DNA of 64,000 bases, taken from NCBI GenBank assembly GCA_032718475.1, contig JAUCBJ010001865.1:17697-81696 (forward strand), read 5' to 3'. This document shows positions 14,817 through 52,096 of the stretch, one piece after another. The position numbers were made by a program, and so were the translations under genes. Source of the DNA: Nemertoderma westbladi. Its lineage: Eukaryota > Animalia > Xenacoelomorpha. How positions within the stretch are numbered: the first letter of the stretch is position 1; each line of letters begins with the position of its first letter. Below the pieces are notes generated by a model. That model did not search any database. It had not been told where the DNA came from and worked only from the letters and a program-made list of their open reading frames with translations.

Positions 14817-16083
14817 AACCCAAACAACGCCCTGGCTCCTAAACCAAACAACGCCCTGGCTCCTAAACCAAACAACGCCCTGGCTCCTAAACCAAACAAC
14901 GCCCTGGCTCCTAAACCAAACCACGCCCTGGCTCCTAAACCAAACCACGCCCTGGCTCCTAAACCAAACAACACCCTGGCTCCTAAATCAAACAACGCCC
15001 TGGCTCCTAAACCAAACAACGCCCTGGCTCCTAAACCAAACAACACCCTGGCTCCTAAACCAAACAACGCCCTGGCTCCTAAACCAAACAACGCCCTGGC
15101 TCCTAAACCAAACAACGCCCTGGCTCCTAAACCAAACAACGCCCTGGCTCCTAAACCAAACAACGCCCTGGCTCCTAAACCAAACAACGCCCTGGCTCCT
15201 AAACCAAACAACGCCCTGGCTCCTAAACCAAACAACGCCCTGGCTCCTAAACCAAACAACACCCTGGCTCCTAAACCAAACAACGCCCTGGCTCCTAAAC
15301 CAAACAACGCCCTGGCTCCTAAACCAAACAACGCCCTGGCTCCTAAACCAAACAACGCCCTGGCTCCTAAACCAAACAACGCCCTGGCTCCTAAACCAAA
15401 CAACGCCCTGGCTCCTAAACCAAACAACGCCCTGGCTCATAAACCAAACAACGCCCTGGCTCCTAAACCAAACAACGCCCTGGCTCCTAAACCAAACAAC
15501 ACCCTGGCTCCTAAATCAAACAACGCCCTGGCTCCTAAACCAAACAACGCCCTGGCTTCTAAACCAAACAACACCCTGGCTCCTAAACCAAACAACGCCC
15601 TGGCTCCTAAACCAAACAACACCCTGGCTCCTAAACCAAACAACGCCCTGGCTCCTAAACCAAACAACGCCATGGCTCCTAAACCAAACAACACCCTGGC
15701 TCCTAAACCAAACAACGCCCTGGCTCCTAAACCAAACAACGCCCTGGCTCCTAAACCAAACAACGCCCTGGCTCCTAAACCAAACAACACCCTGGCTCCT
15801 AAACCAAACAACGCCCTGGCTCCTAAACCAAACAACGCCCTGGCTCCTAAACCAAACAACGCCCTGGCTCCTAAACCAAACAACGCCCTGGCTCCTAAAC
15901 CAAACAACGCCCTGGCTCCTAAACCAAACAACGCCCTGGCTCCTAAACCAAACAACGCCCTGGCTCCTAAACCAAACAACGCCCTGGCTCCTAAACCAAA
16001 CAACGCCCTGGCTCCTAAACCAAACAACACCCTGGCTCCTAAACCAAACAACGCCTTGGCTCCTAAACCAAACAACACCCAAC
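14817..16083. repeat. 24-bp minisatellite (~53 copies)
   Basis: AACCAAACAACGCCCTGGCTCCTA repeated near-perfectly. Confidence 0.97.
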
Positions 16084-16407
16084 CTTCTAACCAAAACAAT
16101 TCAATTCAATTCAATTATGATATTATTTATTATATATATTTATTATTTATAATTTGTATTATTTATTATAATACTACAGACTCAGTCAGTCAGTATCAGT
16201 ATACTCGTTATTAATATATATTTCAAAAATTGTAATTATACTTTAAATTCATTAATAATAATTCGTTTTAAAAAAATGACAGAAAGGTTTTAAAATCATT
16301 TACAAATATTGTTGACCCTGACCCACCCCCAAATAGTGGCAATACGCAAAGGTTTCGCCTACTACCTGGCTAGCCCCACGTTTGAAACATCGGATCTAAT
16401 TTTGCTT

Positions 16408-16915: not shown

Positions 16916-17224
16916 TATATCAATTTGGTGTTATGGCCAGCTCTAGTTTAACCAGGGCAAGTCTATATACAAGCATAATAATATTATATAAAGCAAAAAA
17001 GTTGGCCAGAATGTAATTATGCTAAGTAATATAATTCAATATTATATATACATTATTATTATTACTATTACGTTTTTCATTAATTTAATTAAATTTTTCT
17101 ATAGAATTATATTCCCTAAATGCCGTGGATTTTCAAAATTTTATTTTATTCGAATTAACTTGTTAAAAGATTACTTTGAGTCCTCATTTGTATTGCTATT
17201 TCTATTTGTACGCCTATTATTCAA

Positions 17225-17313
17225 GTGGTTCAGTAGCTCAGTCGGTAGAGCGTTGGAAATTATATATGTAGTAGGTATTGAGTTCGAATCCTAGTAAGTG
17301 CGAATTATTTTTT
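17225..17313 (+). promoter_or_regulatory. tRNA-like Pol III cassette inside the LTR (also at ~33978-34066)
   Basis: A box TAGCTCAGTCGGTAGAGCG, B box GAGTTCGAATCC, T6 run at ~17308-17313. Confidence 0.6.
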
Positions 17314-17520
17314 GTGCAGAATTTCAACTCATTTAAATTGACCGCTACAAATTAAATTGCATTTGTCTGTACCTAGATTAGCCAATGAGACTGTAGTTAT
17401 TAGATTGTAACCAATGTCGTGCAAATTATATATTAGCTGGACCAATAGCTATCTTTAAAAACCTGTTAGAACCTATAGAACAATCGAGAATTTTCTCGAT
17501 TGATTGCGGCACAAATTTGG

Positions 17521-17648
17521 TATATGAAGGTGCGATTTGTTCATTAGTTATCTAATCAATCACTCACTTATCTTCACTCTCTCTTAACTACTTCTATTCA
17601 GAATACATTGTTTATTGTATTATAGTTATTGTTTGATTTTGTAATAAA
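17521..17648 (+). promoter_or_regulatory. Putative LTR TATA/Inr and poly(A) signal
   Basis: TATATGAAG (TATATAAAG in the 3' LTR) ~25 nt before TTAGTT; AATAAA at 17643-17648; a second TATAAA/TTAGTC pair lies at ~18756-18795. Confidence 0.4.
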
Positions 17649-19830
17649 AGTTAGAAATACTTGTCACATCAGCCTTTTCTATCTGTTTTACCATGATTCA
17701 CTACGGTGAACACTCTTAGGAACAGGATGGCCGGATAGAGATCGGGCCGCAGCAATGAACGGGAACATCAAGGGAATGTAGACAGGAGACAACCCGCAAT
17801 ACCACCTTAGTTATTCGCCCATCGCCTGAAAGGTTAGACAGCGTTCGACGCCTTGCTACCTAAGCGTAAGACCAAAGATCAAAGGTAGAAGTAGTGACAC
17901 GCTGTAAGCCTAAAATTACATCTTAGGGACTGTACTGTCTTAATTCAGGAAAAAACCACAGTAGACCTTCACATTCCTACGGGGGGGGGGGGGGGGAGAG
18001 CGCAGGCAGAGATACTAGTACGCAGATAGGACGTAGGCACACCGGTACGAAGCATACACATTGGTAGGGTGCAGCAAACTGTACGCCTAACTCTTGCTAA
18101 GTGCAGGTGCGTCTGTGACTATTTGTAGTACAACGGTGTCCATTGCATTAGAACTTGTAGGCTAGGAGGGTTGCTGTGTTTCACCTGAATTAGGATTGTA
18201 CCGTTCAGGCGGTAGGGCAGTTTACGACTAGGCGCAAATAAATCGAGGCTATTAGGGATATACTAACATCTACCGTGTCCCCGCCAACGTCCTGATAGGA
18301 AGTTACCCAGCCTACCTAGGTGACTAAAATTCTAGATAGGACGCCAGGATAGCTATTAGTAACAGTACGCCTACTGTAGTAAACTAACACATTTCTTCTT
18401 AGTATTAGGGACCTGGTAAATTAAAAATTGCCGAATTCTGGGCGTAGCATTAACCTTATGCCTGAATTTGAGTCCTGGAAATACGCAAGAGGGGAAGGAA
18501 CCTTATTATTCGTGAGTATTGGACCTACAAGTTGCAAAATTAGAATATTCGTAAAATGCACACCGTACCCAGTAATTATATATGTGAAGGAGCAAAACTG
18601 CTTTGACTGTTCAGAATTAACACACGCGCGTTAGAAATTATTTACACCTCAAAATATATAAAAATTAACTTTCGTCCTTACTGTGCTTTGCCCGCTAGTT
18701 AGACATCTCCAAATCTCTGCCTCTGTACCTAGCTAGCGTCCCTTTTGCCCAACCATATAAATCACACCGCGGCAAAGTATACGAGCCCTTTAGTCCGTCA
18801 GTGAGTCAGCCTGATTTTAGGATTCGCTGCGCGGGATTTTGTTTTATCGAAGTTTGTCTGCTCATAGACTGTTTTCTGCCTCACCGGTTATAAGAGATCG
18901 ATACTGCAATATATTCGCTTACTTAGAGTTTACTGTTTTGGTGAGAAGGTCGGATTTATGATTTGATTCACAAACTTTACAGTAGGATATTGCAGGTATT
19001 GTTACCGTCTCTTCGAATAGTAGGAATGTGTTTTACTGAACTACGGTTCGGTAGGACTAAAGTTATTTGAAAATTTTGTATTTTGAGGTAAAAGTTTATA
19101 TTTGATTAGCTAAGTGCTAATTTTTTGAAATAAAATTTGATTTGAACCGCGTGTAAAATATTTTTGGAATTGAATACCGGTGTTTAAAAGGGTTTAAATA
19201 CCATATTGTACCGGTACAAAATTTTCGTAAAAGTAAAACCTAACTCTTTTGTTTTTCAGGATTCAGAACTCATTTCTAGACTGTAACGGGAGCAAGACCG
19301 TGTTTAGCAAGTTTGGGAGATAGATAACCCAACAACTTTGGTTGGGAAAATCGCGCTTCGTCCGCAACGCTGAAAACGGAAAGGTTCACGTCCGGTTTGT
19401 ATCTGGGAATCTGTTTTTCTGGAGAATTATTGGAGTGGGTGAGTTTGAAAAGTTGCATAAATAAGTTAGGCATTACCGTATTAGTTAAAATTATTGTGGG
19501 TTCCACTGTCTCAAGTATTTATGCATTCCGTACGATTTCTTTGTTCATTGCTGAATTAGTCCGTATTATTGTATTTAATTTACCTTTTGATAACGCATAT
19601 CGTTATCCGATTTATTTGTTATAAAATTGGCCGCTAGGCTAATTTTATTATATACTTATTCCGTGACATTTATTTGCTGTAAAATTGGCCGCATAGGCTA
19701 ATTTTATCCATCTGCTATAAAATCGGCCGGTAGGCTAATTTTATATGACTGTAATTAGTACCGTTTAGATATAAATACGGTAAACTTGATACTTTGACAC
19801 TCACATTTTACTTGACTTACAACTACCGAA

Positions 19831-21282
19831 ATGAGTGACAAACAAGACTATACGAAAAATACACAAACCGACTATGACTCATGTGACAGAGATAAGTCAG
19901 CAGCGGAAGAACAACAGGGGAAGACTCGCGAGCCTACCGAACCTACACCGTGTGCGTCACCAGTACATCCAACGGGAGTACCGGATGCCGTAGTACGAGG
20001 CAACGGCAGGACCGAGGACTTTCTAACTGTTCCGCAACCTAGATACAGGGAAACGGAGATGGTAAGTTCAGTAGGAAGCCAGGAGAGTGTGGTTAGAAGC
20101 GTCGGCGGATACATGGCGCATATTACCAGGAGTATTGGAGAAGGCCAACGCATATTAGACGAGTTGACCGCTCCGATGTCTCGGTTTGAGTTCTACACCC
20201 TCCAGGTTAGAGTACAAAGTAGAGTACATAAGTCCGTAGATAACCTAATTGGTCTACAAGATCTAGCTAGACAGAGACAGGACATGGATACTCAACTTAG
20301 AATCCTCGAGAAACTAATGATCGCTAGAGAGAAACTGATTCAGTTTAAGTCGACGATTAGGCAGATACAACAGGAACAAGCGGACCAGTTGTTAGGTGAG
20401 TCAGTTTCGGACGAATTATTGCAGCCCGAGGAAGAACAGGAACTGTACCGACTAGATGGACAATTAAAACACCTGACGGACCACTTACGTATGTGCGGCG
20501 AGGATGTCGGAGATTGGGAAACCGTGCCGGAGGCTACGAGGGAAACTTCACTCGCACAAATCGAATCGGCACCGGGAATACTAAATCAACCATTGGTAAG
20601 TATTCGTAGCGAAATCTGCGAGGGAAGTATGGTCACGTCAGAAGTTGCTCGACAACAACAAGAATTCTACCGACAACGACGAGAAATGGAGGAACAAGCT
20701 CAACTTCTAGTGATGCAGGCAGCAGTAGAGGAAGAGAAGCTACGCGTTGCGAATGTAGCGAGAATCTCTCATCTACAGGAACAAGCTGAATTAGAAGCAG
20801 CTGAAGTAGAAAGGTTAGAGGTAGACATTGCCCAACAAACGGCAGCGGTTGATTTAGCGCGACGAAACGCAGCGGCCGAGTTAGAGCGACAAACGGCAGC
20901 GGCGGAATTAGAGCGACAAACGGCAGCGGCGGAATTAGAGCGAGAAAGGTTAGTTTCGGAAGCACGGGCCGAAATGAAAACACGGCAAATAAAAGCTCAA
21001 TCCGCTATACGACAAGTGGAGTTTGAGGCGCAACGACAACAAACGGAACAACGAGAGAAGACAGCTAAACTTCATTTCGAACTCGAGAAGAAGGCGAGAG
21101 AATTAGCCGAAGCCAAGGAAAATCTGGATCTTCTAGCCCGCGATAGATCGATGAGATCTCGTGACGGACATGATTTGGACCAGTTAGAGGTAAGACATCG
21201 CCAAATTCAGGAACGGAAGAAGGAAGGAAGCGTAGGAGCACCCGGACGGGAACGACAATTAGTAAAAGACTTGTGTCAATGA
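19831..21282 (+). CDS. BEL/Pao gag N-terminal region (coiled-coil rich)
   Basis: 483-aa ORF from ATG, E/Q/R/A-rich heptads, directly upstream of the gag core; not in frame with downstream ORFs. Confidence 0.65.
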   Translation: MSDKQDYTKNTQTDYDSCDRDKSAAEEQQGKTREPTEPTPCASPVHPTGVPDAVVRGNGRTEDFLTVPQPRYRETEMVSSVGSQESVVRSVGGYMAHITRSIGEGQRILDELTAPMSRFEFYTLQVRVQSRVHKSVDNLIGLQDLARQRQDMDTQLRILEKLMIAREKLIQFKSTIRQIQQEQADQLLGESVSDELLQPEEEQELYRLDGQLKHLTDHLRMCGEDVGDWETVPEATRETSLAQIESAPGILNQPLVSIRSEICEGSMVTSEVARQQQEFYRQRREMEEQAQLLVMQAAVEEEKLRVANVARISHLQEQAELEAAEVERLEVDIAQQTAAVDLARRNAAAELERQTAAAELERQTAAAELERERLVSEARAEMKTRQIKAQSAIRQVEFEAQRQQTEQREKTAKLHFELEKKARELAEAKENLDLLARDRSMRSRDGHDLDQLEVRHRQIQERKKEGSVGAPGRERQLVKDLCQ

Positions 21283-21920
21283 TTCCACAAGTAACTCCTA
21301 TGTTTGCACCAATTATGACTAAGAAACCTGTTTCGATTGCGGGTAGTAGTGATATTTCTCCTATCCATGGTGCGACGGAACACAGGTTGGTTATTCCGGA
21401 CAAATTCATACCGTCAAGAGCAACGTCGTCGCCTATTTTGAAAGTCAAGGTAAGTAACCCACCGATTACAGATCGTAGTAGTTTGTTGACTGGACCTGCA
21501 CTACTGACGACAAAACAGGTGAGTCCACCTTTGACACCTAAACCGGTTACGCACTACGAATACCCAATGACGTTTCGACCTACAAGGCCAGTTCAGTTTA
21601 CATCGCAATCTACGACTTCGAGGAAGACTTGTGAGCCTACCGAACAACGGAGACCAGTGGATACGCGACCGTTCAACCAGTTTACATCGCAATCTACGAC
21701 TTCGAGGAAGACTTGTGAGCCTACCGAACAACGGAGACCAGTGGACGATGTTCCGAAACAAACATTAGAATTCATACGACGCAACGGACGCGAGCACTTC
21801 GACCACCATATCCAGATGATAGTAGTACTTCGAGCGAATCGGATTACCCGAAACGCGAGGTATTTAGAACAGGGGCGGCCGATGAATATAAACGCGAGCG
21901 TTCAGACAACTCCTTTGTAG
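21273..21920 (+). CDS. P/T/S-rich gag linker segment (frameshifted relative to neighbours)
   Basis: Overlaps both flanking frames; contains an 84-bp-period direct duplication (21594-21745). Confidence 0.45.
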   Translation: MSMIPQVTPMFAPIMTKKPVSIAGSSDISPIHGATEHRLVIPDKFIPSRATSSPILKVKVSNPPITDRSSLLTGPALLTTKQVSPPLTPKPVTHYEYPMTFRPTRPVQFTSQSTTSRKTCEPTEQRRPVDTRPFNQFTSQSTTSRKTCEPTEQRRPVDDVPKQTLEFIRRNGREHFDHHIQMIVVLRANRITRNARYLEQGRPMNINASVQTTPL

Positions 21921-22021
21921 ACAATCCTCCACAGAATACACCAACACAGAAGGCGTTACAACCAACGGACGCAATCAGTACACAACAGTTCGCCGACATC
22001 CTGCGACCAGTTGTTAACAAG

Positions 22022-25000
22022 TTGGCTCAGATCGAGGAGCGTCTGGAGGAAGTTCAAACCGATAGTTCGAGGAACACTGAATTCGAACACAATAGACACC
22101 CGAAGGAACCACAAAGACCGGTACCTTCAAAACACACATCGTATCAGGGAAAAGCGCCAAGAAGGGAGAACATCAACCAGATTACCAACCAAGGACGCGA
22201 AACTCTGAACGTTGCCGAGGAGATAGCGAAATTCGCAGCTAGACAAGGACTACCGGTGCAACAACCACCTAAGTTTTCCGGTAGCTCAAAACACTGGCAC
22301 ACTTTCGTAGACTATATCGAATCTCAGATCGCCGTGTGCGCTTTTACATCACGGGAGAAGTTTAATTACCTGCTTCAAACATTGTCGGGAGAACCTAAAC
22401 GTTTGGCGGAGACCTTCGTTGGTGTACCGGACGCCTTCGAACTAGCGTACGATCGTTTAACTTCGATCTACGGAGGTACAGTCAGCATGGCCAGGTCAGT
22501 GATAGAGGAACTCTGTAAGGGAGGGGCTATTACTAAACCCGTCGACTTATTGAAACTGGCTGACGAAATAAAGAACGCTATCACTACTTTGAGATCCATT
22601 GGACAACTTGACTACGGGAATACCCCTACAGTCCTATTAAAGATCATAGGACGACTCCACCATCGACTTCGTCGGGAGTGGAGGAAGATTGAATACCAGC
22701 GGGAAGAGCGGGGTGGATTCTTAAAACTGGAAGATGTGTACCTTTTGATATCCAGGGAAGCAGTGGTAGAAACTCGATCCAACTACACTGACCAGCACAT
22801 CGTAGCAGAAGGAATCACCTTGCCATCCTCAAACCGACAAAAACCCCAGACAACATCCACCAAGACGGCCACTTACGCCACATCGACGGAATCACGACAA
22901 TTCTCGGACGGTAGTAGGGTATCTGCGCCCATTGGGATAAAACAGACTAGACAGCAACTCAGTGCAGACTTCAGCGGCTGCCAATACTGCGAGCATTTAG
23001 GCAAGCGGTATATCGGTCACAAGTTGAGAGGTTGTCGACAGTTTCGCGAGTTAAACTCGGAAGAACGACGGCTGCAGATACGGCCATTGGACTCTTGTTG
23101 GCGGTGTACGCGACACGGACACGTCCGCAAAGATTGCCCAAATACCGACACTTGTCCATCCTGTGGACGCAACCATGACGGTCTGCTCCACACAGACAGC
23201 CACACGCCGACAAAACGCTTCGCCAGGGAACACCCGGAAGCAGCAGCGAAATGTAATACGGCCTACAAGAATCAAGAATCGAAAACGACTCCAACTTTCG
23301 TGACACATATTAAGGATTGCTTCTCAGAACAATCCGGATCGTCGGACGAAGAGTCAGAAGACGACGACGTATATTCCGATGGAGACGAACAACCATCGAT
23401 CGCGCTTCTGACGACTGACCAACTAAAGGGATTCAGCGTAATTCCGATTAAGATTACTGGCACAAAAGGGAGCAAGAGAATCTACGCTATCCTGGATTCA
23501 GCCTCATCTCACAGCTACGTGGATGAGCAGATAGCTGATGTAGTGACGGATCTCAGACAAGGTAAGCGCGTCAGTTACACCGTAAGTAGTATGCACGGAC
23601 AACGTGCAATACCAGTGACACGAGTTAAGTTGGACTTAGACACTCTTCTTCCAAAATCGCAACACAGCGAAAAGGAGAGGTCTTTGTTACCCTTTAAGGA
23701 TTTGACTTTTGCGGCCACCAAGGACTTTAGTAACCTACTAGGTCCTGTCCCAGAACAATCCTTGGAGGACCGTAAGTATTTCAGACACCTTGGTGTACCT
23801 GAATGTCCTGTCAATTATAGATCGGTAGCCATGCTGATCGGGACAGACCAATTCAACCTACATCAAGTGTGGGAAACCAGACCATCGGCAGTCGTAGCGG
23901 GAAACGCATACGCCTGTAGAACGCCGATAGGGTGGTATACTCGAGCGCCTGTGCGCACACTGGACATAAGTGACGAGGAAGACGATGTACAAAGTACATG
24001 TAGTTTATTAACTACAAATTCAATTCATTCCTTTTCACACGACGTGGACCATACTACCTTACATACAAAACATGACAGACGTGTAACTAGTATGATAAGT
24101 CACAAGGAGCAGCTAATCCACCAGGTGAGTTTAGAACTTGGGGAGAAGACGAGTCAGCCAGAGATTCCATCGACGACAGATGATAACGCCGGAAGGCTTG
24201 CGAGTCTACCTACACCAATAACCTCAACAATGCCCGTCGATATCGATGATGACGCGTTGAGAAATCATCAAGTGGAACAAGCTGTATTGGACAAAGAATT
24301 AACGGAGAAGACTATCAGGTGGTTAGAACAAGATACAGCTGAACCTGGTAGCTACGAACCATGTATGTCGGAACAGGAGAAACAATCTTTGAAGATCATG
24401 GAAGATACTATCCGCCAGACGAAAGACGGACATTATGAGGTAGGGATGTTATGGCGTAGCCAAAGTCCTAAACTCATAAATAACTATCCACTAGCTTTAA
24501 GACGTTTACACTCGATACGACAACGTCTATTAAAGGACGAGAAAGCCCATCTGCAGTATAACACTCAGATGGAGACGTATTTGTCCAAGGGATACGCTAT
24601 CCGAATGACTAACCCAGAGATAGTAACTGACCAGACATACTACTTGCCACATCATTTCGTGAGACACCCCGACAAACCAGACAAAGTACGTGTAGTCAAT
24701 GACTATGCGGCTCTGTTTGAGGGAATGTCCCTCAATAGCGAGTTGATGGATGGACCAAACATGAATAATTATCTTATGGGGGTGATTATGCGCTTCCGTC
24801 AGCGTCAAGTAGCCTTTACTTGCGACGTCGAAGCTATGTTTCACCAAGTGAGAGCGTTAGAGCAAGACAGAGACAGTTTGAGGTTCCTCTGGTATCCGGA
24901 AGGAGACTTAAGTCTACCACCGGCGACTTACCAAATGCAAGTTCGCGTTTTCGGTGCCAGAGACAGCCCAAACTGTACAATGTATGCCCTAAAGCAAGCC

Positions 25001-28000
25001 GCTAGGGATCAGAAACACCTGTATGACCCAGAGATAATTAAGATTGTGGAACGTGACTTTTACGTCGACGACGGTTTACAGAGTTGCGACACAGTAGAAC
25101 GTGCTACAACAGTAGCACATCAATTACGGGACTGCTTAGCGGGCGGAGGTTTTAACCTCACCAAATTCGCCTCAAACAGTGCCGAATTAGTAGACTCATT
25201 CGGAACGACTGAGCGTGGAGGTGGTGACATAGACCTAGAGTTCGAACCACTACCGACGACCAAGGTGTTGGGGCTCTTTTGGGACCCAAACACGGACAAC
25301 TTTCGAGTGAAGGTAAGACTGGACAGTCAAGAAAACACACTGACAAAGAGATCATGCTTGTCAAAATTGAGCCGATTGTTCGATCCATTAGGATTCATCA
25401 GTCCAATAATACTGCAAGCCCGCATTTATATGCGCAGTATTTGGAAGGATGGACTGACATGGGACGAGCCGATCTCATCAGACCAAGTGGACTTATGGAA
25501 GACCTGGGAGGCAGAATTATCTTCGCTAGAGGATTATTCCATACCCAGAGTCTACTTTCCATTACAAACAACATTTCCTGACAGCTTGGAATTACACTGT
25601 TTTTCCGACGCCAGTGACAACGGTTTTGGTGTGGCAGCGTACTTGCGCAGACAAGTAGACTCAGAAGAATTCGATGTTTCGCTCATTACTTCTAAGGCAA
25701 AAACAATGCCTACTAAGTATATGACGACACCACGAGCTGAGCTACAAGCCGCAACCCTGTCAACCACCATCGTGAACCTTATACAGACGGAACTACAGTC
25801 AAGTTTACAGATATTTTATTGGACTGACGCGATGTTGGTTTTATTTTACATAAACAACGACACACTTGAATTCAAGACATTCGTAGCTAACCGTCGCGCA
25901 GAAATTCTAGACCGTTCAATAAAGGAAGATTGGCGACATTGTCCCGGACCACAAAACCCAGCCGATATTGCGTCGCGAGGAATGATGCCTGAGGAATTCT
26001 GTAAACCGGAGAACAAAGAATTTTGGCAACACGGACCCCAATTCTTGCAGAAATCGACACAAGATTGGCCACCGTTATACGACAGCAAGTCTAACACCAT
26101 CCCTAAAGACGCGGAAATTAAAAAACCAAAAAAGGGGAAGGCAAAGAAAAAGACGACGGCGGCTAAACTCAAGAAAAAACCGAAGGCGAAATGGAAAGAT
26201 ATAACTTCAAAGGTCAAGAACGGAAGACTTGCGAGCCTTTCTACACCAGACATATCGCCAGACATATCGCCAGACGGTCAAACAGACACGTTACTAGACG
26301 GTCAACCAGACGTTTTGCCAGACATGTCACAAAATGTTCTACCAGACACTAGTGACATATTGACAAATAGTAAAGCCGCAGTTTCCCTATTGGAGCGGCC
26401 TTGTATTGACAAACTACCAATTTTGACACACTTGAGCAACCATAAGCACGGTGAAACCTCATGTATTACAGATGTGGGTAGTACCTACGCTAATGTAAAT
26501 ACAGGTGTTACTCTGCGCTCAAGAGACATACCAAACTTGCAACCTATGGTGAGACCCGGGATTAATATCGGCAGAAAATTAAGTTTACCGAAACCCACTG
26601 ACCCCATAGAGTTCAAACCACCATTAACGATCGACTTACAAAGTACTGACAATCAAGGTATGAAGACGAAGAAGGACAAATTACTTGTAGACCCGGACGG
26701 ATCAACAGTCAACAAGGGAATACTTACCGGCGGACCCGTGGGCCCTTCTAGTAAATCAAAACCTTCCAAATTCTTTGACTTACCTGATGACGTCACAAAT
26801 ACTCACGTCGACCGTATTGTAAACTTAACAGACTCTTGGACAAACGCTTGCCGAAAATTAGCGTGGATTGTACGTTTTGTACAATACGTTAAAGGCAAAC
26901 GAGACTTTACACGTCGACTTACATTGACTGAGATTGACAGGTGTGAGATTAAATTAATTCGCCATTACCAACTGCGATATTTCGCGCGCGAATTCACATC
27001 TATAAATCAAGGTCAACCAATCAAGTCGTCACCAATATTGAGTTGGAGTCCGATAATTTATAATGGCTTAATTTGTCATAAATCTCGGCTTCAGAACATT
27101 GACTTTAACACAAACTTTAGATACCCAATAATAATACCACAGCATCACGAACTACAATGTGCAATGATACTGGACGCACATTTACATCTAAAACACGCTG
27201 GAAGACACCACTGTCTTTCCTACTTACGTACAAGATTTGTATTAATTAGACCCAGTAAAGCGTTAAGTTCAGTGACACGTACGTGTATTATTTGTAAAAA
27301 GGTACATTCTAGAATAGGTACCCAAGAAATGAGTGAACTTCCACAAGCACGACTTCAAGCATTCAGACCACCTTTTACAGAGACTGGAATTGATTGCTTT
27401 GGTCCCATACATACGAAACGTGGACGTATACTAGTAAAACGCTGGGGACTGATTTTCACATGTATGTCCAGTAGGGCAGTTCATATTGAACGTGTGATGG
27501 ATCTTTCCACCAACGCGTTTATACTAGCATTGCGGCGATTTATCGCTAGACGCGGACTAGTGAAATGCTTGTACTCAGACCAAGGGATAAACTTTGTTGG
27601 TGCTCGAAATGAGATTGCTAGAGCCTTTAAGAAATTAGATCATGATCAAATCTCAAACGAACTACGTCCTCACAAGATTGTTTGGAAGTTTAATCCTCCA
27701 GATAGTCCATGGAGAGGCGGAGTCTGGGAGAGATTGATTAGATCTATAAAGACAGCCATGGCAAAGGTCATTCCAGTAAACCACATATTGACAGACGACC
27801 AACTGACAACACTGTTTGTTGAAATCGAGGCAATACTAAATACTAGACCAATAGTATTAGTACCCGATGACAAACAATCTCAGTTTGCTTTGACACCGGC
27901 ACACCTGCTTATGCAGGCACCGACCACATTGACGCCTATTTCTATTCCAATAGAAGGCGATAGCTACGGTAGAAAAGCGTGGAAAATCACGCAACTACTA

Positions 28001-28315
28001 GCTAACAAATTCTGGGAAATATGGCAAAACCATTATTTGCCCTCTATTTCTGCCAGAACAAACTGGTAAAATAACACCCGCGCATTAAAGCCGGGAGATC
28101 ACGTGCTGTTAGCGGAAGTGAATCTAAAAAGACGCTTCTGGATAACAGGTGTAATTTTAGCCACACATCCATCTATGGATGGAGTGACAAGAACTGTAAC
28201 GGTACGGACAATTGACGGTCGTACAGTAGACAGACCGACTCAACGTCTCGTACTTCTTGAAGAGACTCGTAACGAGTCTGGAGACTACAAATCTCCAACT
28301 AATATTAGTAAATAA
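22022..28315 (+). CDS. BEL/Pao gag-pol polyprotein (gag core, Zn knuckles, protease, RT, RNase H, integrase); in-frame TAA at 28067-28069
   Basis: PPKFSG (DUF1759-like), three Cys/His knuckles, YAILDSASSHS (protease), YYLPHH/FYVDD (RT), HCFSDAS (RNase H), GIDCFGP/SDQGINF/GGVWERLI (integrase); the C-terminal tail LKPGDHVLL..W..G.I...HP..DGVTR.V.V continues in frame past the stop. Confidence 0.93.
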
Positions 28316-28976
28316 TTAGGAGTTTACAAATAGATTTCCACGTACCTGTACACTGTAGTAAGGACAGCGGTAGAATTCCATTGTCTTTATATGTGAACAT
28401 TGAGGGTAGTACCCTTATGTGTCACATAGGAGCGGGATTTGTAGGTATAAGAAATGGAATTCTACTTGGAACTCACAATATTGAGACATTTTCGAAATTT
28501 TAGACAATCCATTTGGATTTGAAAAATTTTTAAAATTTTCTCCAGTGAATAGATTTCAGGGTACAGTCGGGTGGAATTTAAAATTAGAGAAACAAGAGAG
28601 GAAGACTTGCGAGCCTTTCTTAAAATTTTAATTAAATTTTACACGGTCTTGTTTCAATAAGTTACGTCAATAAATAGACTCCCCTATATTTATTACTAAT
28701 TCTTGATTGCTTATTTTCTGATAATAGTTTGGGATCAAAAAGTGAGTATTTTAGACTCACAGCCAGTTTAGCCCAAATTCGTTTTTATTTCGGCAAAAAA
28801 TTTTAGATAAGAAGCAGCGTGTCATTAAAGAAACCCTAGATCTTAGGCTATGGGTAGGAGGTTAGAGCGTTGTCGAGCCCAAAGGGCAGACGAAACTCTC
28901 ACGTCTTCTCACAACTAACTACAAACTCTGTTGTATTCCCTCTAGTAGTAATGATTATGTAACTACACCCCTAATT

Positions 28977-29516
28977 ATGGAGAAAGGGATACAAGGAGAG
29001 CCGAGATGGGGATATGATATCCAAGAGGAGGCAGCAGCGCCATTCGAAAGATTTGGAGCCAAGGACTACACTATATTTGGTATAAAAGAATTATCAGAAA
29101 GTACTGCGAAACTCGCGAGAACTAAATATGACTCAAATGTATTAAAGAGAAGACAAAATGCATTAAACGAAAGAATCGAAAGTTTGCGCAAAACCTTCAA
29201 CGAACTTTACCCGTACGACGCTTTGTGTGATACGGGAGACATTAGCAAAGACCCCGATACTGAAATTAGTCGTTTGTATCATACCATGCAATACCTGAAG
29301 GCGCACGAACCTATGCCCGCGGTAAGAGATGAATTTGATGGAATGCATCTTTACAGACGAACTCGAGGGGACGATAGAGAAACCAAGGAAGCATTTTCAG
29401 TTTATAAACTTTATTATCAATGCGGTTCTTGTATGCGTGAACAACGAAATGCGATTCCGATGCGTTATTCCGATACGATCGCATTTCGTTGTTCACGCAT
29501 ACAAGAACCGCATTGA
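28977..29516 (+). CDS. Accessory ORF A of the retrotransposon (unknown function; 3' end runs into the hairpin)
   Basis: 179-aa ATG ORF downstream of pol with a CxxC motif; the last ~12 codons derive from the inverted copy. Confidence 0.5.
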   Translation: MEKGIQGEPRWGYDIQEEAAAPFERFGAKDYTIFGIKELSESTAKLARTKYDSNVLKRRQNALNERIESLRKTFNELYPYDALCDTGDISKDPDTEISRLYHTMQYLKAHEPMPAVRDEFDGMHLYRRTRGDDRETKEAFSVYKLYYQCGSCMREQRNAIPMRYSDTIAFRCSRIQEPH

Positions 29517-29726
29517 TAATAAAGTTTATAAACTGAAAATGCTTCCTTGGTTTCTCTATCGTCCCCTCGAGTTCGTCTGTAAAGATGCATTCCATCAAAT
29601 TCATCTCTTACCGCGGGCATAGGTTCGTGCGCCTTCAGGTATTGCATGGTATGATACAAACGACTAATTTCAGTATCGGGGTCTTTGCTAATGTCTCCCG
29701 TATCACACAAAGCGTCGTACGGGTAA
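29207..29726. repeat. 249-bp inverted repeat with 22-nt loop
   Basis: 29207-29455 is the reverse complement of 29478-29726; the ORF track shows identical peptides on both strands. Confidence 0.95.
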
Positions 29727-29748
29727 TAAGGAAAATCCCGAACCGATA

Positions 29749-32700
29749 TTGGCGAGGTGTTCGAACCATCAACAACTACGCTACCAGGAAGGAGGGTATC
29801 CTTTATCGAATCCATATCATTCGTTTGCTATGACCGGACCAAAGGCGGGAGAAACTGTCGTTTACCCACCTAAGGTTGTTGAACCCGATGTATTTGAACT
29901 TACGCTGGAAGAGGCGAATCAGTCAACCCGCGAAAAGAAAGAAGCTCTTAGCCTATACAGAGCCTACAAGGCTTTCGAGAAAGGTGAGATGGAAGAATGG
30001 GGCGGAAGACTCGCGAGCCTACCTTACCATTGGACGTCACACGATCAAACTCCAGCTAAGGAGATGACACCGGAAGTTTTCGAGAGCATAAACTTTGCTC
30101 AAAACGTTATTCAGAGACTACAGATTGCATCCCCGGAGAGGACAAGAGAAATGCAACCATATAGTACTTCAACTACGAAACCATTGAGTACGACACTCAA
30201 TTTTCCTATTAGTATACCAGTCCGACAGGATACGACGTACGAAATACCCATCGTGGATCATCCAGAAATCATTTCAAACTTGGAGTTTCTTCCTGCAGTT
30301 GTTTTCAGCGATATGAGTAAGATATATGATTTACGTAGACATATTACTCAAAAGGTCGTGTACAACGTTCCACCTCATATTCAAGACTTTAAGGAACTGG
30401 ATAGAGCTGGTGCCGATATAGCTCCGAGTAATTTGAAAGGATATTTAACCAAGACGATTCGTTTATGGATTGGAACCGGAACCTTCGAGTCGGATACAGA
30501 TATTGCCGCGGATTGGCGAGGTAAGGTTATTCGTTTCGAAGATGATAAGGACATAGAGAAGATTTGGCAACCTTCGGAAGAATTGTTGGATGAATGGAAT
30601 AGGACGTTTAGATCGTTTCAGGAAAATGGTTACATGTTTTACGATAACGAGGGCGGCAGTCATCAACAGAGTTTGACTTCTAAGACTATACAAATTAGAG
30701 CGGCGGACGGAGTCCTGCACGTTTTCAGTAGACAGAGGAGCGACAAACGAATGCCGATACCTCCAGCGAATACAAAGCGACACCATCTTATCACTGACAT
30801 AGTAAAGAAGATGGACCAAGCTTGTAATATCGACGCTAGAATGCTACCGAAGATGGTAAGAAACATGATTTTAGATAAAACTGTTGTAAAGATTGGATCA
30901 GGAGTAAGGGAGGACTTAATTAGCGACTTCGCCGGCATGACGGACAGCGATGACCGACTACCGACACCTTACGTCGACACTCGACCTCTTATTTTGTGGT
31001 CTATAGAACAGGGATATTTTCGTGAGTATAATACTCAGAAGACTGGAACTGGATACATTTCCTACCTGTTATTCAATTGGGATTATAAGGAAAGTAAGAG
31101 AACCAAGTATATTGAGACTTATGGAGAAGGTGATACTCCAGATATGAGTGAGTTTGAATCACAGCTTAAATGGAGAGGATGCGTGTATTGGGCTATTACG
31201 TCACCTCCAAGAGCGGTCTTACAATATTATTTAGCAATAGAGTCGTCAGTGAATGTTTGCCTAATCGCCGACATTGTGTCTCGGACTCTCAAAAGACATC
31301 CACTTTGTCTCGGAGAAGATCATACGTTCTACATGGAAGGGAGAATTCATACCGACGTGTTTAGACGATTCCTTGAACCCTTCTACAACTCCGACGCTCA
31401 GTGTAATGCCTTTACTCGAGCAGGATTTAGTATATTTCGAGACGTGTATCTTCGCTGTGCGGGATCTCTTATCGAAAGACCATCTATGTTTACATTGTTA
31501 CCCTATGAAGGAGAACGTATCGTGGAGATTACGGATGAATCACGGCAGACGCGCGCGCCTATCGGTCACCTTGGTGATGATTTCGAAGTAACTACTACGA
31601 TCACTGACGATCCTTTAGAGGAACTTCTTGAGATAGAAAGGAACCTCCCGAAGAAATCTCAGACGGAGATTCGACAACTTGAAGCAACAGATGCTATAGT
31701 TTGTATACAACCTTCAGAAACCTACCAACCCATAGATCCAGATGATTACGATTATAGTGTGGGAGGAAGCGCTCGACCGATTGGAGATCTTATATACGAA
31801 CGAGTGTGGTACCCTGCCAATACGATGTGTGGTAAATGTGGCGTCGCTGGACATCATATGACCAAGTGCAGTGGAAAGCACATTACTACGACTCAGCTAA
31901 TCTGTGGATGGTGTGGAGATCAAGGGTCTCATACCTTTTATACTTGCTGGAGATTTATGGCTCAATGTACTTATTGCAATATAAAGGGACATCGAGCATC
32001 TGAATGCCAACTAAGAGACATACCTTATGAACACGAATCTGTAAAACTCGTGAGAAAATTATTCGATGAGTGGGAAGATTTAGCCGACGAACATGTATCG
32101 GCACAAAGAAGACGGTTTCCGATGAGGGCGCATCTTGGATTTTGGGCGGTAAATCCCCAAACGATGATGTCGGAAGGATACATCTCCGCTATGCCCCAAT
32201 ATGACGAACTTATCGAGGTAGTCGATATTTTGCCCCACGACAGTGGATTCCGAGTAGTGCGCGAGTATCTGTTACAGATTCACCCGGATAACAAAAACAC
32301 GTGGAATTTTCAGAAAGTCGTTAATCGCATCACGTATGGTGAATTCGATCGTTTCCGAACTGAAAAGCGGAATAAAGGAGCTTGGTTAACCGTCGCATGG
32401 GCGTACCGAGCCGCGTTTTACCACAAACGTATACGAGCGAGCGTATTCGAGGAAGAGGAGGTCCTAGAGGCGACAAATATACCAGCCACTCCGGTTGCGC
32501 CGTCTGCACGTCACCCTCGGGAGGACGGACAGGGTAGGATCATACGGGTCCAGAAAGTGGGCCAACAGTTAAAGAAGTCTATTAATATAGAAGAACGCAA
32601 GGGAGCTGAGCCGACCATTCGAATTACTCGGGATACGGTATCGCTTCCTAGAGAACCAATAGGAGGATCGGGACATACACCAGCTGATCAAAGGGGGCGC

Positions 32701-32763
32701 AAGCTACTCTTGGGTCTGCGTCGTCCGCTTCCCGCGCGTTCCCAGACGTTCTACCAACTGTAG
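29749..32763 (+). CDS. Accessory ORF B: DEDDy 3'-5' exonuclease-like domain plus three CCHC zinc knuckles (first ATG at 29830)
   Basis: ExoI-like FYDNEG, TIQI, ExoII-like LDKTVVKIGSGVREDL, YVDTR, ExoIII-like LQYYLAIE; CGKCGVAGHHMTKC, CGWCGDQGSHTFYTC, CTYCNIKGHRASEC; no TM or signal peptide evident. Confidence 0.75.
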   Translation: MARCSNHQQLRYQEGGYPLSNPYHSFAMTGPKAGETVVYPPKVVEPDVFELTLEEANQSTREKKEALSLYRAYKAFEKGEMEEWGGRLASLPYHWTSHDQTPAKEMTPEVFESINFAQNVIQRLQIASPERTREMQPYSTSTTKPLSTTLNFPISIPVRQDTTYEIPIVDHPEIISNLEFLPAVVFSDMSKIYDLRRHITQKVVYNVPPHIQDFKELDRAGADIAPSNLKGYLTKTIRLWIGTGTFESDTDIAADWRGKVIRFEDDKDIEKIWQPSEELLDEWNRTFRSFQENGYMFYDNEGGSHQQSLTSKTIQIRAADGVLHVFSRQRSDKRMPIPPANTKRHHLITDIVKKMDQACNIDARMLPKMVRNMILDKTVVKIGSGVREDLISDFAGMTDSDDRLPTPYVDTRPLILWSIEQGYFREYNTQKTGTGYISYLLFNWDYKESKRTKYIETYGEGDTPDMSEFESQLKWRGCVYWAITSPPRAVLQYYLAIESSVNVCLIADIVSRTLKRHPLCLGEDHTFYMEGRIHTDVFRRFLEPFYNSDAQCNAFTRAGFSIFRDVYLRCAGSLIERPSMFTLLPYEGERIVEITDESRQTRAPIGHLGDDFEVTTTITDDPLEELLEIERNLPKKSQTEIRQLEATDAIVCIQPSETYQPIDPDDYDYSVGGSARPIGDLIYERVWYPANTMCGKCGVAGHHMTKCSGKHITTTQLICGWCGDQGSHTFYTCWRFMAQCTYCNIKGHRASECQLRDIPYEHESVKLVRKLFDEWEDLADEHVSAQRRRFPMRAHLGFWAVNPQTMMSEGYISAMPQYDELIEVVDILPHDSGFRVVREYLLQIHPDNKNTWNFQKVVNRITYGEFDRFRTEKRNKGAWLTVAWAYRAAFYHKRIRASVFEEEEVLEATNIPATPVAPSARHPREDGQGRIIRVQKVGQQLKKSINIEERKGAEPTIRITRDTVSLPREPIGGSGHTPADQRGRKLLLGLRRPLPARSQTFYQL

Positions 32764-33852
32764 TGACAACTGATCGGTCACGAGGAATCGGTCGAGGTTT
32801 TGGGATGCCAAATAGACGAATTTGCGAGGAAATAGTCGCACCGTCTCTCAACGTCCAAACGAAACCAGTGACTCGCCCCACGAGTCCCATATCGCGAGCA
32901 AAGTCACCTGTGCGCAGTTTTCGAGGACGCGGCAGGGCTCGATCAACTAAGCGATAAAAGGGAGGGCAAGGGTGGACGGAAGACTCGTGAGCCTTTCTTA
33001 TGATTTTGTGATTTATTTGAATTTATATTTATATTTGTGTTTATTCCGAACTTAAGCAATTTGTATTGTTCCGAATTTATGAAATTTAGAAAGTTTATAT
33101 TTAGAAGGGACTTATATTTGAAAGATTTATGTTTCATATTTGAGATGCAAAGGAGTTTATATTATTCTAAACTTATGCAGTTTATATTTATATTTAGTAA
33201 AGATTTATATTTGTAAGAATTTATATTTTATATTTGTAATTATTCCGAACTTATGCAATTTATATTGTTCCGAATACTATGCAATTTATATCTTATAAGC
33301 AGTATTTGTATTTACAGTGAAATAGAAAGTAAGAGTAGATGGAAGACTCGTGTGCCTTTCTTATAGTTTCATTTGTAAAGTGTTATATTTTGTATTTAGA
33401 AAGTTTTATAGTTAGAAAGTTTTGTACTTAGAAAGACTCATATTTGTAATTATTCCGAACTTATGCAATCTACATTTAGGCACGAAAGTATTTGTAATTA
33501 TTTGAATTTATGCAATATTTGAGATGCAATAGTAGATGGAAGACTCGCGAGCCTTTCTTATGATTTTCATTTATTTGTATTTGTAATTGTTTGAATTTAT
33601 GCAATATTGAGATGCAATAGATTTATATTGGTGAATTTAATTTAGATTTATATTGTACTTACTCAGTAAAGCCTTAACTACGTAAAGTTTGAATTTGTAA
33701 TTATTTTGTATCGAATCATTATGTAGAAAGGAAGTATTGTTTGAAATTTAATTGTAAATATGTAAGTACGCCCTAAGTATTCTATAGTTTGATTGATTAT
33801 TGGTGAAAACCGTATATTTTATGCACGATAATATCCTGTATTCATGGAGCGG

Positions 33853-35778
33853 TATAGAATTATATTCCCTAAATGCCGTGGATTTTCAAAATTTTATTTT
33901 ATTCGAATTAACTTGTTAAAAGATTACTTTGAGTCCTCATTTGTATTGCTATTTCTATTTGTACGCCTATTATTCAAGTGGTTCAGTAGCTCAGTCGGTA
34001 GAGCGTTGGAAATTATATATGTAGTAGGTATTGAGTTCGAATCCTAGTAAGTGCGAATTATTTTTTGTGCAGAATTTCAACTCATTTAAATTGACCGCTA
34101 CAAATTAAATTGCATTTGTCTGTACCTAGATTAGCCAATGAGACTGTAGTTATTAGATTGTAACCAATGTCGTGCAAATTATATATTAGCTGGACCAATA
34201 GCTATCTTTAAAAACCTGTTAGAACCTATAGAACAATCGAGAATTTTCTCGATTGATTGCGGCACAAATTTGGTATATAAAGGTGCGATTTGTTCATTAG
34301 TTATCTAATCAATCACTCACTTATCTTCACTCTCTCTTAACTACTTCTATTCAGAATACATTGTTTATTGTATTATAGTTATTGTTTGATTTTGTAATAA
34401 AAGTTAGAAATACTTGTCACATCAGCCTTTTCTATCTGTTTTACCATGATTCACTACGGTGAACACTCTTAGGAACAGGATGGCCGGCTAGAGATCGGGC
34501 CGCAGCAATGAACGGGAACATCAAGGGAATGTAGACAGGAGACAACCCGCAATACCACCTTAGTTATTCGCCCATCGCCTGAAAGGTTAGACAGCGTTTG
34601 ACGCCTTGCTACCTAAGCGTAAGACCAAAGATCAAAGGTAGAAGTAGTGACACGCTGTAAGCCTAAAATTACATCTTAGGGACTGTACTGTCTTAATTCA
34701 GGAAAAAACCACAGTAGACCTTCACATTCCTACGGGGGGGGGGGGGGGGGGGGGGAGAGCGCAGGCAGAGATACTAGTACGCAGATAGGACGTAGGCACA
34801 CCGGTACGAAGCATACACATTGGTAGGGTGCAGCAAACTGTACGCCTAACTCTTGCTAAGTGCAGGTGCGTCTGTGACTATTTGTAGTACAACGGTGTCC
34901 ATTGCATTAGAACTTGTAGGCTAGGAGGGTTGCTGTGTTTCACCTGAATTAGGATTGTACCGTTCAGGCGGTAGGGCAGTTTACTACTAGGCGCAAATAA
35001 ATCGAGGCTATTAGGGATATACTAACATCTACCGTGTCCCCGCCAACGTCCTGATAGGAAGTTACCCAGCCTACCTAGGTGACTAAAATTCTAGATAGGA
35101 CGCCAGGATAGCTATTAGTAACAGTACGCCTACTGTAGTAAACTAACACATTTCTTCTTAGTATTAGGGACCTGGTAAATTAAAAATTGCCGAATTCTGG
35201 GCGTAGCATTAACCTTATGCCTGAATTTGAGTCCTGGAAATACGCAAGAGGGGAAGGAACCTTATTATTCGTGAGTATTGGACCTACAAGTTGCAAAATT
35301 AGAATATTCGTAAAATGCACACCGTACCCAGTAATTATATATGTGAAGGAGCAAAACTGCTTTGACTGTTCAGAATTAACACACGCGCGTTAGAAATTAT
35401 TTACACCTCAAAATATATAAAAATTAACTTTCGTCCTTACTGTGCTTTGCCCGCTAGTTAGACATCTCCAAATCTCTGCCTCTGTACCTAGCTAGCGTCC
35501 CTTTTGCCCAACCATATAAATCACACCGCGGCAAAGTATACGAGCCCTTTAGTCCGTCAGTGAGTCAGCCTGATTTTAGGATTCGCTGCGCGGGATTTTG
35601 TTTTATCGAAGTTTGTCTGCTCGTAGACTGTTTTCTGCCTCACCGGTTATAAGAGATCGATACTGCAATATATTCGCTTACTTAGAGTTTACTGTTTTGG
35701 TGAGAAGGTCGGATTTATGATTTGATTCACAAACTTTACAGTAGGATATTGCAGGTATTGTTACCGTCTCTTCGAATA
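33853..35778 (+). repeat. 3' LTR (1926 bp)
   Basis: Direct repeat of the 5' LTR; preceded by short purine-rich GGAGCGG (PPT-like); followed by TSD TTTTC. Confidence 0.95.
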
Positions 35779-36451
35779 TTTTCATAATTTAGTCGTACTT
35801 AATGTATGTTTCTTAATTACTAACAACTGATATAAAACAAATAATAATTACTGGCAAAATTACAAAAATAAAAGAAAACATGATGATTCCTGCCGGGCAT
35901 TTTGCTTTCTTTCCTTAGGTAAAACAAAAAAGAGGCAGATAGGGGGCTGGGGTTGGGGGGTTGGTTGACTGTGGATGGAAACAAAATTCCTTCCGTTCCG
36001 GGGTAAAATTGACTAAAATAACAAGTGATTACTCCAAAAATGTAACAGTAACATGTTACAACGTGCCATGCAACTGTAACCTGCTCCTTTCCCTTAATTT
36101 ATAAATTAGTAACATTTAGACGATATATTAATTCGCCAAGATAGGATTTGTGCCTCTCCTGTCTCAAAATAAGACTCCCTATTATGATGAATAATTACTT
36201 TAAAACATCAGACAGTATAATATTTTGATGGTGACATTGTGATATTAATGGTTAATATTATATAACAAATTGATGATTGAAATTGATTGATTGAAATTGA
36301 TTGATTGATAGATCTACAATAAAGTTTATAGCACTTTCTATAATTCTGGTTTTTGATATCAGATGATCGAATATTTCAATAATTTCATACAATATAAGTA
36401 ACAATTGATTTTTAGATCTTATGTAGTATTATCATTTCAATAATAATCAAT

Positions 36452-37106
36452 ACTACTACTACTAAGTCGAGCGAACTCGGACAGCGGAAATGAGATCCTT
36501 CCAGGCTTCCCGATTCTCCAACTACTACTACTAGGTCGAGCGAATTCGGACAGCGGAAATGAGATCCTTCCAGGATTCCCGATTCTCCAACTACTACTAC
36601 TAGGTCGAGCGAATTCGGACAGCGGAAATGAGATCCTTCCAGGATTCCCGATTCTCCAACTACTACTACTAAGTCGAGCGAACTCGGACAGCGGAAATGA
36701 GATCCTTCCAGGCTTCCCGATTCTCCAACTACTACTACTAGGTCGAGCGAACTCGGACAGTGGAAATGAGATCCTTCCAGGCTTCCCGATTCTCCATAGT
36801 TGTCGCAATTTCGTTTCTCCCAAGTTCAGTATCCCTTTCAAGTTGATCTATATATGTTATAGCCGGTCGTCCACGACTACGCTTTCCATGAGTTGGTTGC
36901 CAGAAAAGTAGATCTGGTATGACCTCGTCTTTACTTCGCCAGCAGTGCCCACTGAATCTTAATCTGCGTTCACGGAGGGTGGTTGATACAGGTGGTATTG
37001 TACCATAAAGCTCGGCGTTTGTAATGTGTTGTCCCCAGTTGATGTTTATGGCTGCCCTTAGTAGTCTTGTGTAGCAGCCATCAATTAATTCGTAGTTCAA
37101 GTGATT
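36452..37106 (-). mobile_element. Short 5'-truncated copy of the same RTE-like LINE with its 69-bp 3' end tandemly repeated
   Basis: 36728-37106 matches ~1275-1650 in reverse complement; four extra 69-bp terminal units at 36452-36727. Confidence 0.92.
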
Positions 37107-42139: not shown

Positions 42140-42303
42140 CGGACTACCCAAGGAGTGGCCCAGCTCGTGAGCAAATGTGATGTGCGATATAGTGGTTGGA
42201 ACTCGTGAGCCGAAGTTATTGATAGAAACAACTCCGACGTTAATAGTTCTGTATCCCCGTGATCCGAAGTTGATCTTCTTCTGGCAAATACCTCCAACTG
42301 GAC
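42140..42303 (-). CDS. ADAM10: ADAM10-like exon D (Zn-binding HExxH motif)
   Basis: ttcag|GT CCA...AGT CCG|gtaagt; (G)PVGGICQKKINFGSRGYRTINVGVVSINNFGSRVPTTISHITFAHELGHSLGSP, compare ADAM10 VSHITFAHEVGHNFGSP. Confidence 0.95.
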
Positions 42304-52090: not shown

Positions 52091-52096
52091 ATTGGC

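Follow-up and report, generated by a model that had tools for sequence, protein, structure and literature searches.

A dispersed 20-nucleotide hairpin motif as a candidate multi-site RNA signal in a BEL/Pao retrotransposon of Nemertoderma westbladi

The locus and its retrotransposon

The stretch of DNA analysed here (hereafter the window; 64,000 nucleotides (nt) of contig JAUCBJ010001865.1, positions 17,697 to 81,696 of the forward strand, assembly GCA_032718475.1) comes from the xenacoelomorph Nemertoderma westbladi and harbours a long terminal repeat (LTR) retrotransposon of the BEL/Pao type, through the interior of which a 20-nt, quasi-palindromic motif is dispersed in twelve copies (Table 1; positions are those of the window). 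We consider this motif to be real and likely functional, and explore below what it may do.

Judged by its predicted domains, namely Gag (DUF1759, Pfam E-value 5.8e-11), the order protease (PR), reverse transcriptase (RT), RNase H and integrase (IN), a Pao-type Peptidase_A17 (1.7e-42) and DUF5641 (7e-11), the element belongs to BEL/Pao. Its 120 best Pao polyprotein relatives share 38-44% identity with it and, where named, stem mostly from marine invertebrates. The element is young. Its two LTRs differ by five substitutions and one indel in a G run, and it is flanked by a 5-bp target-site duplication (17095-17099 and 35779-35783), within the 4-6 bp expected of BEL/Pao. BEL/Pao elements typically have TG...CA termini and a tRNA-type primer site; here the LTR termini read TA...TA, and no such primer site was evident directly 3' of the 5' LTR (tRNA complementarity judged by eye). 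Thousands of variant contigs map onto the element in two sequencing runs, which fits a multi-copy family. In this copy the gag side is broken in frame near 21280 and at 21720-21920 (no Pfam family reached the cut-off in the gag-side frames), and the pol frame is interrupted by a stop (28067-28069) within DUF5641, the integrase tail.

Behind pol lie two further open reading frames (ORFs), A and B. Because a single contig of run X4 joins 19438 to 28946 across a consensus GT..AG, both are likely made from a spliced mRNA joined to the leader; the likely intron takes out seven of the twelve motif copies, and the spliced mRNA retains five. The entry of run X4 as DNA is a guess; it could instead be RNA, or its joints may be retrocopies.

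Table 1. Features of the retrotransposon and copies of the 20-nt motif in the window
Feature	Position	Strand	Basis or remark
Whole LTR retrotransposon	17100..35778	+	BEL/Pao, 18.7 kb
5' LTR, 1920 nt	17100..19019	+	LTR-LTR comparison
Likely intron, GT...AG	19439..28945	+	one contig of run X4; consensus donor and acceptor
gag-side frames	19831-21282 (coiled-coil-like by inspection) and 21279-21920	+	ORF list, reading frames
gag-pol frame	21719..28315	+	Pfam: DUF1759, three Cys-His arrays, PR, RT, RNase H/A17, IN
ORF A	28977..29516	+	overlapped by 249-nt inverted duplication
ORF B, 977 aa	29830..32763	+	DEDDy-like 3'-5' exonuclease (predicted) and three CCHC knuckles
Predicted exonuclease domain of ORF B	30643-31242	+	D272, E274, D362, Y467-x3-E471
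Three CCHC knuckles of ORF B (aa 667-726)	31828-32007	+	sequence motifs
3' LTR, 1926 nt	33853..35778	+	LTR-LTR comparison
Motif copy 1	19919..19938	+	motif scan; loop CGCG; first gag-side frame, phase 1
Motif copy 2	21622..21641	+	motif scan; loop UGUG; within 84-nt tandem duplication
Motif copy 3	21706..21725	+	motif scan; tandem twin of copy 2
Motif copy 4	24191..24210	+	motif scan; G6·U15 replacing A6·C15; PR-RT linker insertion
Motif copy 5	26222..26241	+	motif scan; RNase H-IN linker insertion
Motif copy 6 (new)	26729..26748	+	wider scan; compensatory changes 4:17 and 8:13
Motif copy 7	28600..28619	+	motif scan; between pol and ORF A
Motif copy 8	30004..30023	+	motif scan; in ORF B (GRLASL)
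Motif copy 9 (new)	31544..31563	+	wider scan; compensatory change 8:13; in ORF B
Motif copy 10	32978..32997	+	motif scan; 3' untranslated region (UTR)
Motif copy 11	33341..33360	+	motif scan; 3' UTR; 8:13 unpaired
Motif copy 12	33538..33557	+	motif scan; 3' UTR
Doubtful 13th copy	27200..27219	+	covariance-model E 0.19; full stem, other loop; in conserved integrase zinc-binding region

Number and placement of the motif copies

All ten plus-strand sites listed in a preliminary description of this DNA were recovered, eight as exact matches, 33341 with one mismatch and 24191 with two, against a mean of 0.00 matches at three or fewer mismatches in 100 shuffles. A wider scan added two copies, one at 31544 with three mismatches (matches of this kind average 0.003 per shuffle) and one at 26729 with five mismatches including two compensated pairs, a class expected 0.007 times per shuffle, with the caveat that any five-mismatch match arises 0.68 times per shuffle. 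The twelve copies span 13.6 kb (19919-33557) of the element's interior on one strand, and neither the scan nor a covariance model found a copy in either LTR or in the rest of the window, as had been described. Since a single tandem duplication of 84 nt gave rise to the copies at 21622 and 21706, and the three copies of the 3' UTR have flanks in common, we count about nine independent sites; with duplicates collapsed, nine sites are evenly spaced (p 0.003-0.016). For most copies the flanks are unrelated, while the 20 letters are 75-100% alike.

Eight of the twelve copies lie within coding frames and four are non-coding. The frames first assigned to the motif hold: GRLASL is read at two sites in pol and at one in ORF B, and on the gag side the reading is KTREPT or KTCEPT. 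The occupation of two codon phases plus non-coding sites upholds the view that the constraint acts on nucleotides; no coding copy uses the third phase, in which a C-to-U change at position 11 would make a stop. The GRLASL peptide (as a cleavage site) was rejected as sole cause, four strong copies being non-coding and four lying in another phase; strict patterns for the motif-encoded peptides matched none of 124 stored proteins, and five loose matches were judged chance.

The three pol copies sit where 40 homologues show an occupancy of 0.00-0.17 and lie in linker insertions specific to this element. In runs X1 and X3, one contig each aligns at ~80-83% identity over the RNase H end and then resumes for 33 nt from the start of the 26222 copy (joint 26037->26221), the remainder of the linker not aligning; this copy was likely retained in a diverged subfamily. 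Within the family, purifying selection on the motif was not detected from 3' UTR polymorphism (16 variable places), and none of the 40 listed differences (of 861) falls in a motif, a count without power.

Pairing, covariation and strand

The preliminary description held that the hairpin relies on G-U pairs, which is incomplete: on the plus strand 6:15 is an A·C mismatch in eleven of the twelve copies (G·U at 24191), and 3:18 is free, being unpaired in seven. The pairs 1:20, 5:16 and 7:14 are invariant; 2:19 is G-C or G·U, with G2 fixed and its partner C or U (5 and 7 of 12); 4:17 changes once from A-U to G-C, and 8:13 from U-A to both C-G and G-C. The covariation score (0.208, compared with 0.121 +/- 0.023 when shuffled) was reached by none of 500 shuffles, and slid controls gave 0.035-0.115. 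The chance of the mismatches falling as compensated pairs was 0.020 for 24191, 0.058 for 31544 and 0.006 for 26729, under a null that ignores transition bias. As read-out of a half-site on double-stranded DNA (dsDNA) needs no compensatory double changes, we prefer pairing within one strand to a plain site on dsDNA. Quasi-palindrome repair was rejected as the origin of the compensations, for it would also erase the fixed A·C.

The centre reads YGYG: C or U stands at positions 9 and 11 (7/5 each), all twelve copies keep G10 and G12, and three copies have a UGCG loop. Variation between C and U only keeps both the loop Gs and the self-complementarity of the centre on the sense RNA only; were a central CpG decaying on dsDNA, TG and CA should both arise, and the CA form is unseen (sign test 0.03-0.06). 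We infer that the sense RNA is the working strand. At 33353 nearly all contigs of three runs have a U·G wobble, and the copy in the window (33341) is unpaired at 8:13; this wobble and the fixed G2 facing C or U also speak for the sense strand. The RNA stem-loop proposed earlier is borne out as to its conserved pairing and weakened by the folding predictions, in which the sense hairpin is barely stable.

ORF B, its relatives and the distribution of the motif

ORF B had been described as an accessory zinc-knuckle protein; the knuckles are present, joined to a predicted DEDDy-like exonuclease, so that it is more than knuckles. From its sequence we predict a DEDDy-like exonuclease with three zinc knuckles: D272 and E274 (the Exo I DxE) and D362 (Exo II) are invariant in four of four sequences, all of which carry the three CCHC knuckles, and the third motif reads Y-x3-E in ORF B in place of the canonical Exo III YxxxD. 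Since predicted structures were of low confidence (mean predicted local distance difference test scores of 31 and 30), the fold was assigned from these motifs and from weak profile matches. PF01612 had no match in ORF B and a weak one (E 0.035) in the relative from locus L093, the best PDB match (7C42, a trypanosome RNase D with CCHC fingers) is weak (E 0.003-0.01), and Atlas neighbours of the related protein P0002 carry PF01612 (score 0.87; a lead only). The layout of exonuclease and CCHC knuckle is also that of trypanosome TbRND, as far as the available part of its description goes (PMC7797062). A search of 1.84 billion representatives with ORF B returned four matches, two (P0002 and P0004) with the full architecture and two via the knuckles only; word-index searches with ORF B returned none, and the viral contigs held no locus related to ORF B or pol and no exact copy of the motif.

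At L093 (4973-7087), an ORF behind the pol of a distant, 5'-truncated BEL/Pao element (32% identity to ours in RT/RNase H) encodes the same exonuclease and triple-knuckle protein. That two BEL/Pao elements so distant from each other carry such an accessory gene is a lesser novelty in its own right. An extra ORF (ORF3) with a DEDDy-like exonuclease lies behind pol in the rotifer LTR elements Juno and Vesta as well, and the available part of that account (PMC5408684) reports no dispersed motif with the rotifer ORFs; in our case the gene (its exonuclease predicted) is carried by BEL/Pao elements. L093 sits in a bacterial metagenome-assembled genome (MAG) and is likely host contamination, and the 27 BEL/Pao pol loci in prokaryotic assemblies (L082-L108) are likely animal DNA contaminating MAGs.

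None of the 27 other BEL/Pao loci (245 kb) contained the motif; they gave one four-mismatch match and no model match at E<=1. A generic screen for hairpin arrays in the 22 of the 27 loci that exceed 5 kb set the window (9-10, null 4-5) apart; at L093 it detected no motif array of the locus's own (5, null 4-6). Dispersed repeats above the null were seen at L088 and L091, outside the pol match, and are probably flank or LTR repeats. Matches to the motif in 81 metagenome stretches, each single-site and without pol or ORF B similarity, were treated as chance. Co-occurrence of motif and ORF B, suggested at the outset as a check, speaks against an obligate pairing: L093 (one distant, 5'-truncated element) has an ORF B-type gene and no motif. 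Hence, on the sequences compared so far, the motif seems family-specific and the ORF B-type gene does not appear to need it; a lineage-specific pairing may be compatible with L093 being distant and truncated. In the literature covered (most subscription journals and supplements lay outside its scope) we found no account of the motif, of BEL/Pao hairpin arrays or of a BEL/Pao exonuclease ORF, and no cis signal described for BEL/Pao.

A candidate packaging signal and its likeness to known ones

To our knowledge, how LTR retrotransposons beyond the yeast and retrovirus models select and fold their own RNA is largely open. We reason that the motif may be a multi-site stem-loop of the sense RNA, bound by the element's own zinc-knuckle protein so as to mark, condense and package that RNA, and assign to this reading a probability of about 0.45. 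The sense RNA would fold each copy into an eight-pair stem with a YGYG tetraloop, and a zinc-knuckle protein of the element would bind the hairpins at many points along the long RNA; such multi-point binding would then mark, condense and package it. The bound protein might stabilise the weak stem, or the A·C pair might do so in protonated form (protonation of the A makes A·C isosteric with G·U). The copies presumably multiplied through duplication or template switching and came to lie in linkers and UTRs, which tolerate them, after which selection would act on the 20 letters only. By analogy, the nucleocapsid (NC) of Gag is a more likely reader than ORF B, because every BEL/Pao element has Gag and the loop resembles NC targets. 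In the parts of the two sources available, retroviral NC has a preference for Gs that apical loops leave unpaired (PMC6088434) and the NC of Rous sarcoma virus (RSV) stacks on the Gs of a UGCG tetraloop (PMC5035970).

The copies resemble two kinds of known signal. The dispersed packaging signals of single-stranded RNA viruses (MS2, satellite tobacco necrosis virus, parechovirus, hepatitis B virus) are many small, degenerate stem-loops with a conserved loop that overlap coding sequence. Our motif is likewise present in many copies over the whole genomic RNA, on one strand and overlapping ORFs, whereas its stem and loop are both strongly conserved and its host is an LTR retrotransposon. As in our motif, G stands at loop positions 2 and 4 in HIV SL2 and SL3. 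With the retroviral psi signals (SL-C of RSV with UGCG, SL2 and SL3 of HIV-1 (human immunodeficiency virus type 1); available parts of PMC5035970 and PMC6088434) the motif, if it folds as proposed, shares a short stem and a G-containing tetraloop. The covariation and the invariant Gs speak for a psi-like stem-loop with unpaired loop Gs, and the weak predicted folding of the sense strand speaks against it. Unlike psi, which forms one cluster in the 5' leader, the motif comprises twelve near-identical copies over 13.6 kb, eight of them coding; it is not confined to leader or unspliced RNA, five copies lying downstream of the splice acceptor and hence in the likely spliced mRNA.

Several observations weigh against a protein-bound sense hairpin. 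The hairpin alone is predicted at -0.4 to -4.9 kcal/mol and carries the fixed A·C mismatch; in context its pair probability is at most 0.15 in all twelve copies, with the antisense core reaching 0.4-1.0 in seven. The covariation amounts to three cells in two copies that were added by inspection, under a model fitted post hoc; four of five covariation measures were not extreme (34, 152, 22 and 411 of 500), the neglect of transition bias in the compensated-pair null counts on the same side, and the double change at 24191 leaves its GRLASL reading unaltered. Neither the full twelve nor the original ten copies show significantly even spacing (p 0.08-0.19), and in 741 nt of 3' UTR one of the 16 variable places falls in the motif where 1.3 were expected, a comparison of little power. 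As the likely spliced mRNA keeps five of the twelve copies, the motif alone cannot select genomic RNA, and in RSV, according to the available part of PMC5035970, mutation of UGCG left the selectivity of full Gag unaffected.

With a 20-nt motif, natural compensatory variants and two candidate proteins, short RNAs and small domains allow the question to be tested. Should multi-site signals prove real, animal retrotransposons would join RNA viruses in packaging by dispersed signals; should ORF B turn out to be the reader, the element would possess a sequence-specific counter-defence at the RNA level.

Alternative readings

The foremost alternative, which we hold to be possible and yet doubtful, is RNA-RNA pairing at many points, in which each copy would pair with its counterpart in the other genomic RNA (by a kissing loop, then an extended duplex) or with copies within one RNA, thereby aligning or compacting a dimer of more than 15 kb for packaging and template switching with no need of a sequence-specific protein. 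Every copy is self-complementary over all 20 letters, and on the sense strand all twelve have standard pairs (C-G or U·G) at 9:12 and 10:11, which on the antisense strand are broken in eight of twelve. In nine of twelve copies the predicted 20-bp self-duplex is strong (-17 to -25 kcal/mol, which places it among the best 0.1-3% of all 20-mers in the element and far below the values of the hairpins), and 24191 is the best cross-pairing partner (-25 to -32 kcal/mol with standard copies). In retroviruses, the dimer-initiation sites (HIV-1, mouse mammary tumour virus, Mason-Pfizer monkey virus) are, in the available part of PMC12789967, self-complementary palindromes with a GC dyad that can kiss or form duplexes; known sites, however, are one or a few and lie in the leader, and not twelve along an element with a fixed internal mismatch. 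Pairing between RNAs also leaves the one common sequence of all copies and the fixed A6·C15 unexplained, and in three of twelve, namely the UGUG copies and 33341, self-pairing is at background (-8.2). Since the UGUG copies self-pair only at background, read-out of the loop is favoured over a duplex as the common function. The two can coexist: a self-complementary loop could let copies that are bound as packaging hairpins kiss or form duplexes as well.

We consider it unlikely that the near-palindrome is a dsDNA site, bound in the integrated element by a dimeric host or element-coded (VANC-like) factor that keeps chromatin open. A 20-bp dyad with a CpG core, spaced at ~1.4-2.5 kb, would suit such a factor, and the CpG observed/expected ratio is 1.17 in the element and 0.66 in the flanking DNA, though a young element is CpG-rich anyway. 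Besides the compensated changes, which half-site read-out leaves unneeded, this idea has against it that C/T-only variation at the centre breaks the dyad symmetry, that the LTRs are without copies, and that CCHC-knuckle and exonuclease folds, the candidates at hand, mostly bind single-stranded nucleic acid (PMC7797062, in part). The parallel to VANC proteins and VANDAL transposons, drawn in the preliminary description, thus holds in some respects only. As far as the available part of PMC5735166 goes, VANC motifs are likewise family-specific, of one orientation, in many copies partly spread by tandem duplication, and found in an element with an accessory gene; they are, however, 9-bp dsDNA motifs, mainly non-coding, of a DNA transposon, whereas ours covaries as a stem and lies in coding sequence in eight of twelve copies, ORF B has another predicted fold, and the L093 gene comes without the motif.

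Slightly less credible still is that the working hairpin belongs to the minus strand, either as antisense RNA or in minus-strand cDNA. It would contain a G·U pair and a loop of the form CRCR, and would have its role during reverse transcription or at an antisense transcript. Folding of the antisense strand is predicted to be more stable (-3.3 to -8.3 kcal/mol in eleven of twelve copies, with the core pair probabilities given above); with DNA parameters both strands come near zero (0 to -1.7), antisense 2:19 is mismatched in seven of twelve copies, the hairpin is broken by the 33353 variant and by copy 24191, and an antisense transcript is itself hypothetical here. We see an equally slim chance that ORF B, made from the spliced mRNA, docks on the twelve hairpins as an RNA-level counterpart of VANC and acts only on the transcripts of its own family, either shielding them or destroying cut fragments that feed host small-RNA silencing. 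Least probable of all is that copies born of template switching or tandem duplication are simply tolerated in linkers and UTRs and have no function: plain duplicates among them (the tandem of 84 nt, and a 3' UTR that is dynamic and rich in joints), a drop of polymorphism in the motifs that is not measurable and the absence from the 27 other loci agree with this, while the likeness of the 20 letters amid unrelated flanks, the compensated stem changes and the likely retention in a diverged relative oppose it.

Further features of the element and the window

The 11 nt after the 5' LTR (19020-19030) are the exact reverse complement of an LTR 11-mer (17970-17980 / 34723-34733) that ends at a long G run. 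Tf1-type self-priming has such a geometry; no case of BEL/Pao self-priming was found among the literature matches listed. A loose end in run X4 matches a short LTR segment (17811-17833) joined near 19260 (region 19261-19438), which suggests a second intron whose loss would take the primer site with it. ARAGORN called no tRNA genes; by eye, a tRNA-like stretch with A-box and B-box-like words lies in U3 (~17222-17295) and has a twin in the 3' LTR.

ORF A is overlapped by a perfect 249-nt inverted duplication (29207-29455 / 29478-29726, spacer 22 nt), which contigs from X1 and X3 do not follow; either it is confined to this copy or a few, or the assembly created it. Its transcription, should it occur, would yield long double-stranded RNA against the family. 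Searches of Rfam 15 gave no match at gathering score, the sub-threshold matches all falling on this inverted repeat.

Outside the retrotransposon, satellite arrays comprise ~250 copies of a 39-nt unit at 42149-52100, the long ORFs over which are likely by-products, and further 24-nt and 41-nt arrays at 14673-16200 and 37440-38000+. A non-LTR-type RT ORF occupies 182-1639 (RVT_1, E 4e-35), and a 3' piece of this ORF recurs in inverted orientation at 36448-37086, just downstream of the 3' LTR, where it bears 69-nt tandem tails.

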